The notes: generated from the letters alone by a model not told the origin. Positions 835 to 33,253 are shown, numbered from the stretch's first letter. The stretch is 64,000 nt of DNA from Escherichia coli (GCF_030384885.1 NZ_CP128613.1); one strand, 5' to 3'. Numbers and translations: made by a program.

Positions 835-2346
835 TTGCTTAACGCAAGGAATAAAAACGTATTGATGAACACTGGGAATTTCGAGTCGATACAAATCATG
901 ATCGCCGCGCAAGAGTGGCGTAGCCTGCCGCTGCATCTGCGTTTGTATCAGGCTTTTCGTCAGTTGGTGATTTCTGGCGCGTTGTCTGATGGCGCAAAAC
1001 TGCCGTCCGCTCGCGCACTGGCCCAGCAACTGCACCTTTCCAGAGATACCATCGAAAATGCCTATTCCCAGCTCCACCGCGACGGTTTTATGGCTCGCAG
1101 GCAGGGGGCCGGGAGTTTCGCCAGCCGCCAGGGGATACCGCATATTCAGGGCCAGCATGCGCAACCACCCTCGCCCGGACAAGTACCGGCTTTAAGCGCT
1201 CGCTGGCAGCCAATTGCCGATCGCGCAGTCTCTTTCGATGCCCGCCAGATGCAGACCTTTACGCTTGGCCTGCCGGAAACGCGAAACTTCCCGCTAAACA
1301 TTTGGCAGAACTTTTCCCGCCAGATCCAACGTGAGCAGGCGCATACGCTGATGTTAAATAGCGATCCGCAGGGCGAGCCACAGCTGCGCCAGCAAATTGC
1401 GCATTACCTTAATTTTGAACGCGGCGCGAAGGTAGATGCCGGGCAGATTGTGATTGTCAGCGGCGCACGGCAGGCGTTCTGGCTGTGCGGGCAACTGCTG
1501 GCAGAGGCCGGACAGTCGGTGGCGATGGAAAATCCGGGCTATCCCGGCGCGCGTCAGGCGTTTTCTGCCGCACAGCTTAATCTTCTTCCCGTTGAAGTGG
1601 ATGACGCCGGGATCCGGGTGGATAAACTGCCGCCCGCGCCGCTGGTTTACGTCACGCCCTCGCACCAGTTTCCTTCCGGTCATTTGCTCACGCTGGCGCG
1701 GCGTCATGCCCTGATTGCCTGGGCGCAGGCGCACAATGCATGGATTATCGAAGACGACTACGACAGCGAATTTCACTACACCAGCGCGCCCGTCGCCTGT
1801 CTGCAAGGGTTAGACTGCGAGCAACGCACCCTGTATGTCGGCACTTTCAGCAAAACGCTCTATCCCGGCCTGCGCATCGGTTATCTGGTGGTGCCGACGT
1901 CGCTGGCTGCGCACTTTGCCGCCGCGCGTAATTTGCTTGATGGCGCAACGCCTGCGTTATCCCAACTAACGCTGGCGCGATTTATCGAGTCCGGTCATTT
2001 TGCCGCCCATATTCGCAACATGCGCAGTATGTACGCAGTGCGACAGGCGAGCCTGGCAGAGGCTATTCATCAACACTTAAGTGAATGGGTCACGCCAGTG
2101 GTGACATCCGGTGGGTTACAAATGCCCTGCTGGCTGCATGAAGGTATTGATGAGCAACAGACGCTAAATGCCGCGCGCCGCGCCGGGTTAAACATCGCCG
2201 GAATGCGCCAGTTCTGGCTGACGCACCCCGCGCCCGCGGGCTGGCTGCTGGGATTTGCCGCCTTTACCCCCTACGAGATTGAACAGGGCGTCAAGCGTCT
2301 GCGGGCTGCATTATGCACTGAAAACGTGCGCCCAGCCGGGTCATAA
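835..2346 (+). CDS. MocR/GntR-family transcriptional regulator with PLP-dependent aminotransferase-like domain
   Basis: 503-aa ORF; N-terminal HTH-like segment (LPSARALAQQLHLSRDTIENAY) followed by an aminotransferase-fold domain with candidate PLP lysine (TFSKTLYPG); true start probably an internal Met near 898. Confidence 0.7.
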   Translation: MLNARNKNVLMNTGNFESIQIMIAAQEWRSLPLHLRLYQAFRQLVISGALSDGAKLPSARALAQQLHLSRDTIENAYSQLHRDGFMARRQGAGSFASRQGIPHIQGQHAQPPSPGQVPALSARWQPIADRAVSFDARQMQTFTLGLPETRNFPLNIWQNFSRQIQREQAHTLMLNSDPQGEPQLRQQIAHYLNFERGAKVDAGQIVIVSGARQAFWLCGQLLAEAGQSVAMENPGYPGARQAFSAAQLNLLPVEVDDAGIRVDKLPPAPLVYVTPSHQFPSGHLLTLARRHALIAWAQAHNAWIIEDDYDSEFHYTSAPVACLQGLDCEQRTLYVGTFSKTLYPGLRIGYLVVPTSLAAHFAAARNLLDGATPALSQLTLARFIESGHFAAHIRNMRSMYAVRQASLAEAIHQHLSEWVTPVVTSGGLQMPCWLHEGIDEQQTLNAARRAGLNIAGMRQFWLTHPAPAGWLLGFAAFTPYEIEQGVKRLRAALCTENVRPAGS

Positions 2347-3397
2347 TCTCATACGGGATGGTGTTGCAGGCAGCGGCAACCTGTTCCAGCGTCTGGCCTG
2401 CGCCAATAAATTCCACCTTATCGCCCGCTGTCGGCGTGACGGCGCTGGCATCGACCATAAAGCTGTCCATACAAACCCGCCCCAATACCGGTAACCGCAC
2501 GCCGCGCCAGCATACGCCCGCCGGAGGACGCATATTTCGCGGAACGCCATCCGCGTAACCCGCGGATATCGTAGCGATACGCAGCGGACGCGTGGCGGTA
2601 ATCGTACTGCCATAGCCAACTGGCGTTCCCGCCGGGACATCCTGCACGCGCAGAATAGTTAGCGTCAGCGTAAAAGCCGGTTTTAGCGGCCTGGAAAACC
2701 ACGGCTGGGCGACGCCAAACAGCGCAATCCCCGGACGGCAGAGATCTTCCCGCCAACCTGGTTGCAAAAACATTCCGCAGGAGTTCGCCAGCGAAAATCG
2801 GCTGCTGGGGAAAACCGTTTTTGCCTGCTGGAATAGCGCGTGTTGCGCCACATTTAACGCATGATCCGGCCTGTCGGCGTTCGCCAGATGGCTGATGATA
2901 TAGTCCGGCGCAGGCCAGTTACGCTCACGAAATATCGCCGCCAGACGCATCAGTTGTTGCGGCATCACGCCCAGCCGCGACATACCGGAATCGAGCTGGA
3001 TCATCACCGCACGCCGCTGCTGGCGCGTTTCCAGTAACGTAAGCCACGCCATCACCTGGTCAATGGAATTGAGCAATGGCGTGATCTGCTGCGCGTAACA
3101 ATACGCCATCGCCTCCGGCATAACCCCATTAAGCACTACCACCATCGCATCAGTGGGCAGGATTTTACGCAGCGCCACGCCCTCCGAAAGCTGTGCCACA
3201 AAAAAGATCCGGCAGTTCGCCGCATACAGGGCGGGCGCAATCGCCTCCGCCCCCAGACCATAGGCATTGGCTTTCAACACCGCGCCACATTGCGCAGGGG
3301 CAACATGGCGCGCCAGCGTGCGATAATTATCGACGATGGCGGCGAGATTGACGCACATAACGCCGCACGCCGCCTGGATTTCAGTAGAAGTCATCAT
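2291..3397 (-). CDS. alanine racemase family protein (PLP-dependent)
   Basis: 368-aa ORF with PLP-lysine motif VLKANAYGLG typical of alanine racemases; start overlaps the stop of the upstream SHMT-like gene. Confidence 0.7.
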   Translation of the reverse strand: MMTSTEIQAACGVMCVNLAAIVDNYRTLARHVAPAQCGAVLKANAYGLGAEAIAPALYAANCRIFFVAQLSEGVALRKILPTDAMVVVLNGVMPEAMAYCYAQQITPLLNSIDQVMAWLTLLETRQQRRAVMIQLDSGMSRLGVMPQQLMRLAAIFRERNWPAPDYIISHLANADRPDHALNVAQHALFQQAKTVFPSSRFSLANSCGMFLQPGWREDLCRPGIALFGVAQPWFSRPLKPAFTLTLTILRVQDVPAGTPVGYGSTITATRPLRIATISAGYADGVPRNMRPPAGVCWRGVRLPVLGRVCMDSFMVDASAVTPTAGDKVEFIGAGQTLEQVAAACNTIPYEIMTRLGARFQCIMQPADA

Positions 3398-26289: not shown

Positions 26290-27621
26290 ATGTCTGAAAT
26301 GACCCCACGCGAAATCGTCAGCGAACTGGATAAGCACATCATCGGCCAGGACAACGCCAAGCGTTCCGTGGCGATTGCACTGCGTAACCGCTGGCGTCGC
26401 ATGCAGCTTAACGAAGAGCTGCGCCATGAAGTGACCCCGAAAAATATCCTGATGATCGGCCCGACCGGTGTCGGTAAAACTGAAATCGCTCGTCGTCTGG
26501 CTAAGCTGGCGAATGCGCCGTTCATTAAAGTTGAAGCGACCAAATTCACCGAAGTGGGCTATGTAGGTAAGGAAGTGGATTCTATTATCCGCGATCTGAC
26601 CGATGCCGCCGTGAAAATGGTACGCGTCCAGGCTATTGAGAAAAACCGTTATCGCGCTGAAGAACTGGCAGAAGAACGTATTCTCGACGTGCTGATCCCA
26701 CCGGCTAAAAACAACTGGGGACAGACCGAACAACAGCAGGAACCGTCCGCTGCTCGTCAGGCATTCCGCAAAAAACTGCGTGAAGGCCAGCTCGATGACA
26801 AAGAAATCGAGATCGATCTTGCCGCAGCACCGATGGGCGTTGAAATTATGGCGCCTCCGGGAATGGAAGAGATGACCAGCCAGCTGCAGTCCATGTTCCA
26901 GAACCTGGGTGGTCAGAAACAAAAAGCGCGTAAGCTGAAAATCAAAGACGCCATGAAGCTGCTGATTGAAGAAGAAGCGGCGAAACTGGTGAATCCGGAA
27001 GAGCTGAAGCAAGACGCTATCGACGCCGTTGAACAGCACGGGATCGTGTTTATTGACGAAATCGACAAAATCTGTAAGCGCGGCGAGTCTTCCGGTCCGG
27101 ATGTTTCTCGTGAAGGTGTTCAGCGTGACCTGCTGCCGCTGGTAGAAGGTTGCACCGTTTCCACCAAACACGGGATGGTCAAAACTGACCACATTCTGTT
27201 TATCGCTTCTGGCGCGTTCCAGATTGCGAAACCGTCTGACCTGATCCCGGAACTGCAAGGTCGTCTGCCAATCCGCGTTGAACTGCAGGCACTGACCACC
27301 AGCGACTTCGAGCGTATTCTGACCGAGCCGAATGCCTCTATCACCGTGCAGTACAAAGCACTGATGGCGACTGAAGGCGTAAATATCGAGTTCACCGACT
27401 CCGGTATTAAGCGGATCGCGGAAGCAGCATGGCAGGTGAACGAATCTACCGAAAACATCGGTGCTCGTCGTTTACATACTGTTCTGGAGCGTTTAATGGA
27501 AGAGATTTCCTACGACGCCAGCGATTTAAGCGGTCAAACCATCACTATTGACGCAGATTATGTGAGCAAACATCTGGATGCGTTGGTGGCAGATGAAGAT
27601 CTGAGCCGTTTTATCCTATAA
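26290..27621 (+). CDS. hslU: ATP-dependent protease ATPase subunit HslU
   Basis: 443-aa ORF recognised as HslU (Walker A GPTGVGKT). Confidence 0.95.
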
Positions 27622-27687: not shown

Positions 27688-28614
27688 ATGACTGAACAAC
27701 AAATTAGCCGAACTCAGGCGTGGCTGGAAAGTTTACGACCTAAAACCCTCCCCCTCGCCTTTGCTGCAATTATCGTCGGGACGGCGCTGGCATGGTGGCA
27801 AGGTCACTTCGATCCGCTGGTCGCCCTGCTGGCACTGATTACCGCCGGACTGCTTCAAATTCTCTCTAACCTCGCTAATGATTACGGCGATGCAGTAAAA
27901 GGCAGCGATAAACCTGACCGCATTGGCCCGCTACGTGGCATGCAAAAAGGGGTCATTACCCAGCAAGAGATGAAACGGGCGCTCATTATTACCGTCGTGC
28001 TCATCTGTCTCTCCGGGCTGGCACTGGTTGCAGTGGCGTGCCATACGCTGGCCGATTTTGTCGGTTTCCTGATTCTTGGCGGGTTGTCGATCATTGCCGC
28101 TATCACCTACACCGTGGGCAATCGTCCTTATGGTTATATCGGTTTGGGTGATATTTCCGTACTGGTTTTCTTTGGCTGGTTAAGCGTCATGGGCAGCTGG
28201 TATTTACAGGCTCATACATTGATTCCGGCACTGATCCTTCCGGCGACCGCATGCGGCCTGCTGGCAACGGCAGTACTGAACATTAATAACCTGCGTGATA
28301 TCAATAGCGACCGCGAAAATGGCAAAAACACGCTGGTAGTGCGCTTAGGTGAAGTGAACGCGCGTCGTTATCATGCCTGCCTGCTGATGGGCTCTCTGGT
28401 GTGTCTGGCGCTGTTTAATCTCTTTTCACTGCATAGCCTGTGGGGCTGGCTGTTCCTGCTGGCGGCACCATTACTGGTGAAGCAAGCCCGTTATGTGATG
28501 CGGGAAATGGACCCGGTGGCGATGCGACCGATGCTGGAACGCACTGTCAAGGGAGCGTTACTGACTAACGTGCTGTTTGTTTTAGGGATATTCCTAAGCC
28601 AGTGGGCAGCATAA
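27688..28614 (+). CDS. menA: 1,4-dihydroxy-2-naphthoate octaprenyltransferase
   Basis: recognised as MenA (polytopic membrane prenyltransferase); start moved to MTEQQ. Confidence 0.9.
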   Translation: MTEQQISRTQAWLESLRPKTLPLAFAAIIVGTALAWWQGHFDPLVALLALITAGLLQILSNLANDYGDAVKGSDKPDRIGPLRGMQKGVITQQEMKRALIITVVLICLSGLALVAVACHTLADFVGFLILGGLSIIAAITYTVGNRPYGYIGLGDISVLVFFGWLSVMGSWYLQAHTLIPALILPATACGLLATAVLNINNLRDINSDRENGKNTLVVRLGEVNARRYHACLLMGSLVCLALFNLFSLHSLWGWLFLLAAPLLVKQARYVMREMDPVAMRPMLERTVKGALLTNVLFVLGIFLSQWAA

Positions 28615-28706
28615 CTGACAAATATCAATTAACAATTGATGATTTTGCCAACAGCCCACATAGCGCGATATACTGAAAATTCTCGCAGCAACTGAATGTT
28701 AAGCCT

Positions 28707-29192
28707 ATGAAATACGATACTTCCGAGCTTTGTGACATCTATCAAGAAGATGTTAACGTCGTGGAACCGCTGTTCTCCAACTTTGGCGGACGGGCGTCGT
28801 TTGGCGGACAAATAATCACGGTAAAATGTTTCGAGGACAACGGGTTGCTGTACGATCTGCTCGAACAGAATGGCCGTGGTCGTGTTCTCGTCGTTGATGG
28901 CGGTGGTTCTGTTCGTCGCGCACTGGTCGATGCTGAGCTGGCGCGTCTGGCAGTACAAAATGAATGGGAAGGCCTGGTCATTTACGGCGCGGTGCGTCAG
29001 GTAGATGACCTGGAAGAGCTGGATATCGGCATCCAGGCGATGGCAGCAATTCCAGTCGGTGCCGCTGGCGAAGGCATTGGCGAAAGCGATGTCCGCGTTA
29101 ATTTTGGCGGCGTCACCTTCTTCTCCGGTGACCATCTTTATGCCGACAATACCGGAATTATTCTTTCAGAAGATCCGCTGGATATTGAATAA
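28707..29192 (+). CDS. rraA: ribonuclease E inhibitor RraA
   Basis: 161-aa ORF recognised as RraA (formerly MenG). Confidence 0.95.
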
Positions 29193-29207
29193 GTACCTGC
29201 CATGCGT

Positions 29208-29238
29208 TAAAAGGGGAATTAAATTCCCCTTTTTTATA
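29208..29238 (+). terminator. rho-independent terminator after rraA
   Basis: hairpin AAAAGGGGAATT-AAATTCCCCTTTTTT. Confidence 0.65.
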
Positions 29239-29450
29239 TGCAAAATATTCATAAAGACTATCATTTGTTTTTATTTAATTCATTTTAAATATCAATAGTT
29301 CACATCTGACAATATAAATTAATTATCGATAAATCATTTCATAAAAATATGCAGCATTAAAAATTAATGCTATATGGTAAATTAACTATTCTGGGAATAG
29401 GGATATGAATCATCGTTAGTAGCGAACGTATTATATAATAAGGGATTGAT

Positions 29451-30167
29451 ATGAGATACGTTATCTTATTAATACTATGGATAATAACTACTTTTCTTAG
29501 TCATCTTCAGCACAGCAACCTACTGTCTGGAGATCCTGGCATGGTTGGCGAGTATATCGGTTCAGTATTTCTGGGGCCGTTGTTACTTCCCGTGCTTGTG
29601 TCAGGTATTCTGTGCGCATTTATTAAAAAAAAACGTAACTTCGCCAGTTTTACTCGCGGGTGCTGTTGGGTATTGGGAATCCTGCTTTTATCCAAAGTCG
29701 GCAATACGTTTCGTATGTTTACCCCGTGGCAATATACCTTTGAGAATGCTGCGATAACCGTGACTATCCCGAACCGACACTGGAATACGGTTTCCATTAG
29801 TACTAATAAAACCATTGATATAAGAAGTGAGGATAATAGCGTCTTCATTTCTGCTTTCCGCCTGCCCGCAGGACGTAGCGCCGATGACCCGCTGGAAGCG
29901 TTAAAGAAGAAGCAGCGAGACAATCTCAAGGATCAATACAATGAGGAAGCCTTCCAGTTTCATGATTGTAATGCCAAACATTTCACCTGTAAGTATCAGG
30001 ATGTGTTGATAAATTTTGATGGTCAGCAGAAAAGAACCATCAGTGTTTATCTTGAAGACACCCCCAGGGCTGTGGGGATCATTGCATTAATGGCGCCAGA
30101 TACGGCAGATAAATATCGCCAACAGGCGATGGAGATTATGCTTTCCGCTAAAAATGCAGTGAAGTAA
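29451..30167 (+). CDS. hypothetical membrane-anchored protein on an AT-rich insert
   Basis: 238-aa ORF; two or three predicted N-terminal TM helices then a soluble domain; no motif I recognise; AT-rich upstream region. Confidence 0.5.
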   Translation: MRYVILLILWIITTFLSHLQHSNLLSGDPGMVGEYIGSVFLGPLLLPVLVSGILCAFIKKKRNFASFTRGCCWVLGILLLSKVGNTFRMFTPWQYTFENAAITVTIPNRHWNTVSISTNKTIDIRSEDNSVFISAFRLPAGRSADDPLEALKKKQRDNLKDQYNEEAFQFHDCNAKHFTCKYQDVLINFDGQQKRTISVYLEDTPRAVGIIALMAPDTADKYRQQAMEIMLSAKNAVK

Positions 30168-30169
30168 AA

Positions 30170-30195
30170 AATAAGGCGCCTTGCGGCGCCTCTGC
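30170..30195 (-). terminator. hairpin terminator between the 238-aa ORF and zapB (T-run on the zapB side)
   Basis: AAGGCGCC-ttgc-GGCGCCT stem with T-run on the minus strand. Confidence 0.55.
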
Positions 30196-30205
30196 GTGGA
30201 AGAGA

Positions 30206-30514
<309 letters not shown>

Positions 30515-30876: not shown

Positions 30877-33253
<2,377 letters not shown>

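Follow-up and report, generated by a model that had tools for sequence, protein, structure and literature searches.

In the K-12-type 'empty' arrangement of the Escherichia coli chromosome, 84 bp separate the genes rraA and zapB, and about 87% of complete E. coli genomes have this spacing. In the 64,000-nt stretch of E. coli DNA considered here (the window; all coordinates count from its first letter), the distance is 1,013 bp, and the additional DNA contains an open reading frame (ORF) of 238 codons. An initial annotation of the window, made from the sequence alone, had placed rraA and zapB next to each other on the K-12 map and had noted one 238-aa ORF in a gap of about 1 kb; both descriptions were correct, and the K-12-type arrangement lacks the gene. 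The locus raises the question of whether the ORF is a gene, and if so, what kind of protein it encodes, how it came to be where it is and what it might do.

The ORF is a real gene. Its predicted fold makes the product a member of the Mog1/PsbP/DUF1795 class, while by sequence it appears to represent a new, unnamed small family that falls outside the DcrB, PsbP, Eag and type VI secretion system (T6SS) immunity families. The simplest reading of its distribution is that an ancestral gene downstream of rraA diverged quickly, was duplicated in Escherichia and was lost many times, including from the K-12 lineages. We hold this structural and evolutionary description as a whole with high confidence, and offer a function for the protein more tentatively. 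The reality of the gene, its distribution, synteny, fold and selection regime are shown by the data, whereas the topology, the disulfide and the function are inferred.

Gene and start codon

The ORF is taken to be a real gene because the ratio of nonsynonymous to synonymous substitution rates (dN/dS) is 0.10-0.31, at synonymous divergences (dS) of 0.09-0.41, in pairwise comparisons of seven Escherichia alleles, and because its structure is predicted with confidence (mean predicted local distance difference test score, pLDDT, 85.3). It is full-length in all six other codon-aligned alleles. Among the 679 genomes that carry the gene, it is disrupted in just two, and blastn coverage is at least 80% of the gene in 677. 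Its dS is of the same order as that of the flanking genes, whereas rraA, menA and glpF in the same genomes have dN/dS of 0.00-0.06; thus, the gene is under purifying selection, yet its protein is changing several-fold faster than the neighboring ones. The corresponding range for an upstream paralogue found in other genomes (gene 1, described below) is 0.31-0.64.

The gene and the parts of its product are located as follows:

29451-30167, + strand: rraA-zapB gene, 238 aa plus stop codon, with a Shine-Dalgarno-like AAGGGA at 29440-29445 (evidence: ORF, dN/dS, distribution)
29541-29543, + strand: internal ATG used as the start in RefSeq by the Prokaryotic Genome Annotation Pipeline (PGAP), giving a 208-aa product (annotation of NZ_CP027579)
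29451-29720, + strand: membrane anchor, residues 1-90, three predicted transmembrane (TM) helices (evidence: AlphaFold secondary structure, hydropathy, loop charges)
29721-30164, + strand: predicted periplasmic domain of Mog1/PsbP/DUF1795 fold, residues 91-238

The RefSeq record NZ_CP027579 is 100% identical to the window locus, and the PGAP start for the 208-aa product is also used in NZ_CP076237, NZ_CP041996 and NZ_CP032515. This start is probably a mis-call, 30 codons too far downstream, so that the annotated protein loses its first TM helix. We favor the ATG at 29451 because the first 30 codons are conserved (pN/pS, the polymorphism counterpart of dN/dS, is 0.17 across the seven Escherichia alleles) and AAGGGA is located 5 nt upstream. 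The hydrophobic helix specified by these codons is kept in the paralogue and in every full-length relative; unlike this gene, the upstream paralogue is annotated by RefSeq with its equivalent first helix.

Predicted structure and topology

In the AlphaFold2 model, which was calculated from a 23-sequence alignment, three long helices (residues 2-26, 29-57 and 64-90) are followed without a linker by an alpha/beta domain (residues 93-231). Hydropathy and the model agree on the arrangement that had been proposed at the outset, N-terminal TM helices plus a soluble domain. The loop at residues 20-34 contains no Lys or Arg and the loop at residues 57-72 contains five, and so the positive-inside rule predicts an N-in, C-out topology that places the folded domain in the periplasm, at the inner membrane. 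The weak point of this prediction is helix 3, whose hydrophobicity is lower than that of helices 1 and 2.

Besides the start Met, the invariant or near-invariant residues of the family are P107, W111, C173, C180 and L201 only. The first two belong to a conserved strand motif, P107-x3-W111. C180 is invariant and C173 is present in at least 90% of the sequences; together they form a CX6C pair in a beta-hairpin that is kept across members with 17-43% identity to the window protein, and the pair probably forms a disulfide, as would suit a periplasmic domain. The family alignment contains no catalytic-looking motif and no conserved surface. The conserved residues look structural, and the domain looks non-enzymatic.

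The fold of the domain is the Mog1/PsbP-like alpha/beta fold that characterizes the DUF1795/DcrB family. Structural neighbors, each with its score, are:

3lyd (uncharacterized): 11.8
CyanoP (2xb3): 11.5
PA0094/EagT6 (1tu1): 10.8
LpqN (6e5d): 10.2
TplEi/Tli4 (5h7y): 9.4
SciW (6xrb): 9.0
DcrB (6e8a): 8.3
Tsi3 (4luq): 7.7

Foldseek on the better model recovered the same set of PDB entries. Against AFDB50, it returned the protein's own family and then many uncharacterized membrane-anchored proteins labeled 'PsbP C-terminal' or 'DUF1795'; these neighbors outside the family are 10-18% identical to the query.

Sequence-based searches did not place the protein in a family. Pfam gave no match for the window protein, and hmmscan was likewise run with all 23 aligned members: DUF1795 (PF08786) matched neither the window protein nor any of the 23 at E <= 0.1, and PsbP (PF01789) matched one of the 23 weakly (i-Evalue 3.4e-3) and the window protein not at all. 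One E. albertii orthologue carries the UniRef label 'DUF1795 domain-containing'. A match to the NCBIfam YgiW/BOF family, with its OB fold (oligonucleotide/oligosaccharide-binding fold), had E = 0.05, far below the cut-off in significance, and was set aside as noise; PDB sequence profiles gave chance TM-helix matches only. The initial annotation had recognized no family, and the Pfam, NCBIfam, PADLOC, PHROGs and PDB-profile searches were all empty as well. The databases call the protein 'hypothetical protein', and a literature search found no paper on a gene of this family and no description of the rraA-zapB site.

Comparison with proteins of the same fold

DcrB (DUF1795/PF08786; 6e8a), an inner-membrane lipoprotein of E. 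coli and Salmonella, has the same fold as the predicted domain, would share its compartment and is likewise tethered to the membrane. However, there is no detectable sequence similarity between the two, and the Pfam DUF1795 model fails on this family. The anchors differ also: DcrB is held by a lipid-modified Cys in a lipobox, whereas the protein described here has three TM helices, and its N-terminus, MRYVILLILWIITTFLSHLQ, contains no Cys and no lipobox. Further differences from DcrB are the conserved CX6C pair and the fact that the gene is not core, with about 87% of E. coli lacking it.

The fold is also common to periplasmic T6SS immunity proteins, namely Tsi3 (4luq/3wa5), TplEi/Tli4 (5h7y) and PA3488 (7wdk). 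In contrast to these, the window protein has a polytopic TM anchor, its locus is fixed by rraA rather than being part of a T6SS, vgrG or rhs cluster, and no cognate effector is encoded beside any of the family members examined. The Eag chaperones EagT6/PA0094 (1tu1, 6xrf) and SciW (6xrb) are soluble, cytoplasmic and encoded beside prePAAR/Rhs effectors, whereas the window protein brings a three-helix TM anchor of its own and a domain that is predicted to be periplasmic, with no effector, VgrG or PAAR gene as a neighbor. As for PsbP/CyanoP (PF01789), there is no photosystem context here, and the Pfam match is weak and confined to the single member mentioned above. Because the protein fails the Pfam DUF1795 and PsbP models and lacks the hallmarks of DcrB, the Eag chaperones and the T6SS immunity proteins, we treat it as the representative of a small family, new and unnamed, in a fold class that is already known.

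Distribution in E. coli

Among 5,426 complete E. coli genomes, 679 contain the gene, always on the chromosome and once per genome. Three states of the locus can be distinguished. About 4,746 genomes are empty. In 661 genomes, a second gene of 224-228 aa lies upstream (the two-gene form; the upstream gene is called gene 1 and the downstream one gene 2); carriers include O157:H7, O145:H28, CE10 and 118UI. The remaining 18 genomes have the state of the window, one gene preceded by the full AT-rich spacer. UMN026 has at least the upstream gene, and SMS-3-5 has the family gene. Genes 1 and 2 are tandem paralogues with the same architecture and 29% identity (E = 2e-31), and the window haplotype keeps the distal copy only, plus the conserved AT-rich upstream spacer. 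The initial description of a single-gene insert therefore stands as regards the number of genes in the window; as a description of the locus it does not, this being a rare haplotype (18 genomes versus 661 with two genes).

Strain 2013C-4282, an E. coli isolated from human stool in the USA, matches window positions 28700-30480 with 100% identity. In strain TCM3e1 (L006, positions 1549-3375), the gene is split by an IS5-like insertion sequence (IS) of the ISKpn26 family, and in Shigella dysenteriae 1617 (P0017), a fragment of the gene is found inside an annotated transposase ORF. The locus has been inactivated independently in these two strains.

Origin of the locus

A related-locus search with a narrow alignment found Escherichia species only. 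When 1.84 billion representative proteins were searched exhaustively with a profile, the family came to 33 representatives, several of which are 17-43% identical to the window protein and sit directly downstream of rraA or beside zapB. RraA next to these distant members is 86-95% identical over the aligned parts. In every enteric lineage examined, the family gene is downstream of rraA and in the same orientation; a few other members are on non-enteric metagenomic contigs with unrelated neighbors. The surroundings of individual members are:

P0029: adjoins zapB-glpF-glpK
P0051: between RraA (91% identical) and ZapB (91% identical)
P0033: after RraA 95% identical
P0034: after RraA 91% identical, and before an esterase gene, a major facilitator superfamily (MFS) gene, an AraC gene and an apparent pfkA
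P0046: after a 3' fragment of rraA

In an enteric lineage of higher GC content (~54%; P0034 and P0030; L026-L028 and L018), the order is rraA, the family gene, the esterase-MFS-AraC block and the apparent pfkA, and zapB is not there. Because this lineage lacks zapB next to the gene, what the gene is linked to is rraA itself, rather than the rraA-zapB junction.

The flanks in the window, with the genes beyond them, follow the order hslU (26290-27621)-menA-rraA-ORF-zapB-glpF-glpK in the ORF list:

27688-28614: menA
28707-29192, + strand: rraA, conserved left flank (evidence: ORF list, RefSeq annotation of NZ_CP027579, and RraA upstream of distant members by tblastn)
30206-30451, - strand: zapB, conserved right flank, convergent with the ORF (evidence: ORF list and RefSeq annotation)
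30877-31722: glpF

A mobile insert was considered and rejected: divergent relatives occupy the same slot, the one-gene haplotype is shared between lineages, there are no repeats, and no copy turned up on phages or true plasmids. With regard to repeats, no direct or inverted ones bracket the extra DNA, nor are there target-site duplications or terminal repeats, and the ORF list and repeat scan contain no integrase or att site at the rraA-zapB locus. A tblastn search of 50,697 phage records found no copy, and the best match in PHROGs was just E = 0.15. The suggestion of a prophage remnant, made in the initial annotation, is not supported by these results. The sole plasmid match was a 4.94-Mb E. 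coli record filed in PLSDB (NZ_CP141089.1), evidently a chromosome in view of its size.

The one-gene haplotype, including the spacer, is common to E. albertii, E. whittamii and other divergent Escherichia lineages. Since relatives of 17-43% identity share the slot and this haplotype is shared across Escherichia, ancestral presence with repeated loss fits better than insertion. It is possible that the gene has spread by homologous recombination through the conserved flanks. In the window, rraA has a dS of 0.11-0.12 relative to other E. coli and glpF a dS of 0.02, which hints at import: a more divergent Escherichia lineage may have donated the left part of the locus through recombination. When the window strain is compared with O157:H7, dS is 0.12 for rraA, 0.10 for menA and 0.024 for glpF.

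Terminators and AT-rich spacer

The noncoding features on either side of the gene are:

29193-29450, + strand: AT-rich spacer, 25.6% GC (evidence: composition, alignment, pairwise identities)
29209-29239, + strand: rraA intrinsic terminator (left hairpin), stem AAAAGGGGAATT/AATTCCCCTTTT followed by a T-run (evidence: terminator scan)
29238-29288, + strand: what is left, in decayed form, of the 5' end of gene 1 (the upstream paralogue): an ORF of 16 codons encoding MQNIHKDYHLFLFNSF followed by a stop
30173-30192, no strand assigned: GC-rich right hairpin AAGGCGCC-TTGC-GGCGCCTC, with an A-run on the ORF side (evidence: terminator scan, sequence)

Hairpins had been said to bracket the insert. Both exist, at 29209-29233 (an inverted repeat of 12 nt, 100% complementary) and at 30173-30192, as terminators and not as the ends of an element. 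The rraA terminator hairpin is also present in the two-gene O157 form. The right hairpin is formally the terminator of zapB because its T-run is on the - strand, although it could plausibly act in both directions. The terminator of an empty site (L003, positions 1999-2022) reads AGGCACCGCAAGGTGCC followed by a T-run, and is a near match to the reverse complement of the right hairpin (window 30173-30192), AGGCGCCGCAAGGCGCC followed by a T-run; the difference is a compensatory A:T to G:C change in the stem. The two could be one terminator that was inverted, or the result of convergence of GNRA-loop terminators.

The gap as a whole had been called AT-rich. This is true of the 258-bp spacer (29193-29450; 25.6% GC), to which a drop to 22-25% GC is confined, but not of the ORF (43.4%; the window is 50.1%). 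The full-length spacer occurs in just 18 of the 5,426 E. coli genomes, and is 81-96% identical to those of E. whittamii, E. albertii, Escherichia sp. E1V33 and E. coli SCPM-O-B-8794, which also have the same one-gene spacing. It is presumably the promoter and regulatory region of the gene. A promoter-like TTCACA-16-AATTAT at 29299-29326 matches the consensus no better than would be expected in shuffled sequence. The best Rfam match, sraA at E = 0.8, was well below the gathering score, and a structured RNA in the spacer was discounted.

When the spacer is compared with the O157 locus by blastn, the first ~85 nt are 84% identical, covering the rraA terminator and the first codons of gene 1; the beginning of gene 1 in two-gene genomes, MQNIILLFIY..., is similar to MQNIHKDYHLFLFNSF. 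At the other end of the spacer, the final 16 nt match the sequence immediately preceding gene 2 in the two-gene form, and the middle ~155 nt match nothing in it. The possibility that the spacer is a decayed whole gene 1 was dropped, since only the ends match and tblastn with gene 1 finds nothing.

Possible functions

The explanation that we tentatively prefer is that the protein is a non-catalytic binder of the immunity or exclusion type. It would be a small accessory inner-membrane protein in which the three N-terminal TM helices hold the PsbP-fold domain, probably stabilized by the disulfide, directly against the periplasmic face of the membrane. The domain would serve there as a binding module that intercepts an incoming envelope-targeting protein, either an interbacterial toxin that acts in the periplasm or on the membrane, or a component of phage or colicin entry; the tandem paralogues would widen the specificity of such a protector. 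Extended to the whole rraA-linked family, the proposal becomes one of lineage-restricted inner-membrane immunity/exclusion proteins, engaged in an arms race at a fixed chromosomal locus, of which the diverged tandem paralogues and the divergence between genera would be the outcome, and neutralizing envelope-targeting toxins or phage/colicin entry; in this broader form we regard it as possible but doubtful. The binder explanation is favored because frequent loss, fast divergence and diverged tandem copies are typical of conflict genes, and because the fold is that of Tsi3, Tli4 and PA3488. The existence of three-TM immunity proteins against the DUF4225 toxin, and a decayed DUF4225 fragment beside one relative (both described below), count for it as well.

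The neighbors of the window gene and of 13 representatives are core or metabolic genes, with P0046 as the sole exception. The short Logan contig with this member (L008, positions 1-1960; ERR11042056_20370) contains P0046, upstream of it the 3' fragment of rraA, and beyond that, on the opposite strand, a decayed 148-aa DUF4225 fragment and two hydrophobic ORFs of 106 aa. The DUF4225 fragment and these ORFs look like an orphan toxin/immunity remnant; the association with DUF4225 was seen in this one contig only. DUF4225 is a periplasm-acting T6SS toxin domain, against which three-TM proteins (Imm4225) give immunity (PMC9765294). Imm4225 and the window protein both have three TM helices and would both act at the inner membrane or periplasm, whereas Imm4225 is 89 aa long and has no periplasmic domain (PMC9765294). 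When every ORF in 30 loci was scanned with hidden Markov models, neither a toxin nor, outside Escherichia, a further paralogue came up.

Several results weigh against an immunity or exclusion function. No intact toxin, secretion-system or phage gene lies beside the family member in the window or in the 13 representatives, and immunity families usually travel with their polymorphic toxins. The DUF4225 fragment has small TM ORFs of its own downstream, which are candidate immunity genes. PADLOC-DB v2 has no family matching either paralogue at E <= 1, and PHROGs has nothing convincing. The TM and periplasmic parts have dN/dS of 0.19 and 0.27, both <1, so that there is no direct signal of positive selection. 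The family is tiny (the 33 representatives) and tied to one locus; the gene may be silent under laboratory conditions, given its AT-rich upstream region; and the fold, compartment and tethering are also those of DcrB, an envelope lipoprotein of the housekeeping type. The orphan-immunity reading of the initial annotation is possible, supported by the shared fold, fast evolution and duplication and countered by the lack of a toxin neighbor.

Almost as probable, in our judgment, is the main rival to the immunity/exclusion binder: a factor for envelope maintenance that resembles DcrB. The protein would then be an accessory paralogue-by-fold of DcrB, and its domain would bind an endogenous partner (a lipid, a component of lipoprotein maturation or an inner-membrane protein) and so aid envelope homeostasis under particular conditions. 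A fixed chromosomal locus with neither a toxin partner nor mobility is what this would lead one to expect, as is purifying selection on both domains. It accords less well with absence of the gene from about 87% of E. coli and its disruption by IS elements in some strains, and with the divergence of same-position proteins to 17-43% identity while RraA remains at 86-95%. No surface residues are conserved family-wide, and the protein has a three-TM anchor instead of a lipobox and is missed by the Pfam DUF1795 and PsbP models.

The same pattern of loss and divergence could arise if the protein were not protective at all, but rather an inner-membrane component that phages or colicins exploit for entry, pressed to diverge or vanish. 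DcrB is required for adsorption of phage C1, and the fold here is of the DcrB type; presence/absence polymorphism, repeated loss and fast divergence would be natural in a dispensable protein exposed to the periplasm. Such pressure accounts for loss, however, and not for retention under purifying selection (dN/dS 0.1-0.3), and it leaves the maintained tandem paralogues in 661 genomes unexplained. We know of no phage or colicin that depends on the rraA-zapB protein, and consider this role unlikely.

Less likely again is a single-gene anti-phage or abortive-infection effector that disrupts the membrane upon infection, an idea already raised in the initial annotation. Many defense effectors carry TM helices, the present protein is small and membrane-bound, its gene occupies a variable site flanked by core genes, and the AT-rich upstream region hints at conditional expression. 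However, there is no PADLOC match and no sensor or enzymatic domain, and the soluble domain, with its predicted periplasmic location, would be out of reach of phage nucleic acid and cytoplasmic triggers; in every lineage examined, the slot is occupied by this one family rather than by the alternating cargo of a defense hotspot, and the gene is never on phages, plasmids or islands.

A relic without function, left over from an ancestral pair of genes or from a prophage or mobile element and maintained by drift alone, would agree with loss of the gene from most E. coli, the decay of gene 1 in the window haplotype, the truncated or IS-interrupted alleles and the lack of a known function or literature, but is just as improbable in view of dN/dS of 0.10-0.31 over dS of 0.09-0.41, full-length reading frames in six other alleles and at least 80% coverage in 677 of 679 carriers, the confident structure prediction, a Cys pair kept across 17-43%-identical members and the absence of phage homology.

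Implications

The locus offers an accessory gene that can be tested, mildly interesting to the specialist rather than surprising. As a three-state marker (empty, one gene or two genes), the rraA-zapB interval sets O157:H7, other strains of phylogroups D, E and F, some Shigella and E. albertii apart from K-12-type E. coli. If the DcrB-like reading is true, strains with and without the gene would provide a natural presence/absence system for studying the role of this fold at the inner membrane. If the protective reading is true, the locus would be a chromosomally fixed, non-mobile immunity/exclusion locus, and its product would be a membrane-anchored addition to the PsbP/DUF1795 fold class, alongside the T6SS immunity proteins, the Eag chaperones and DcrB.

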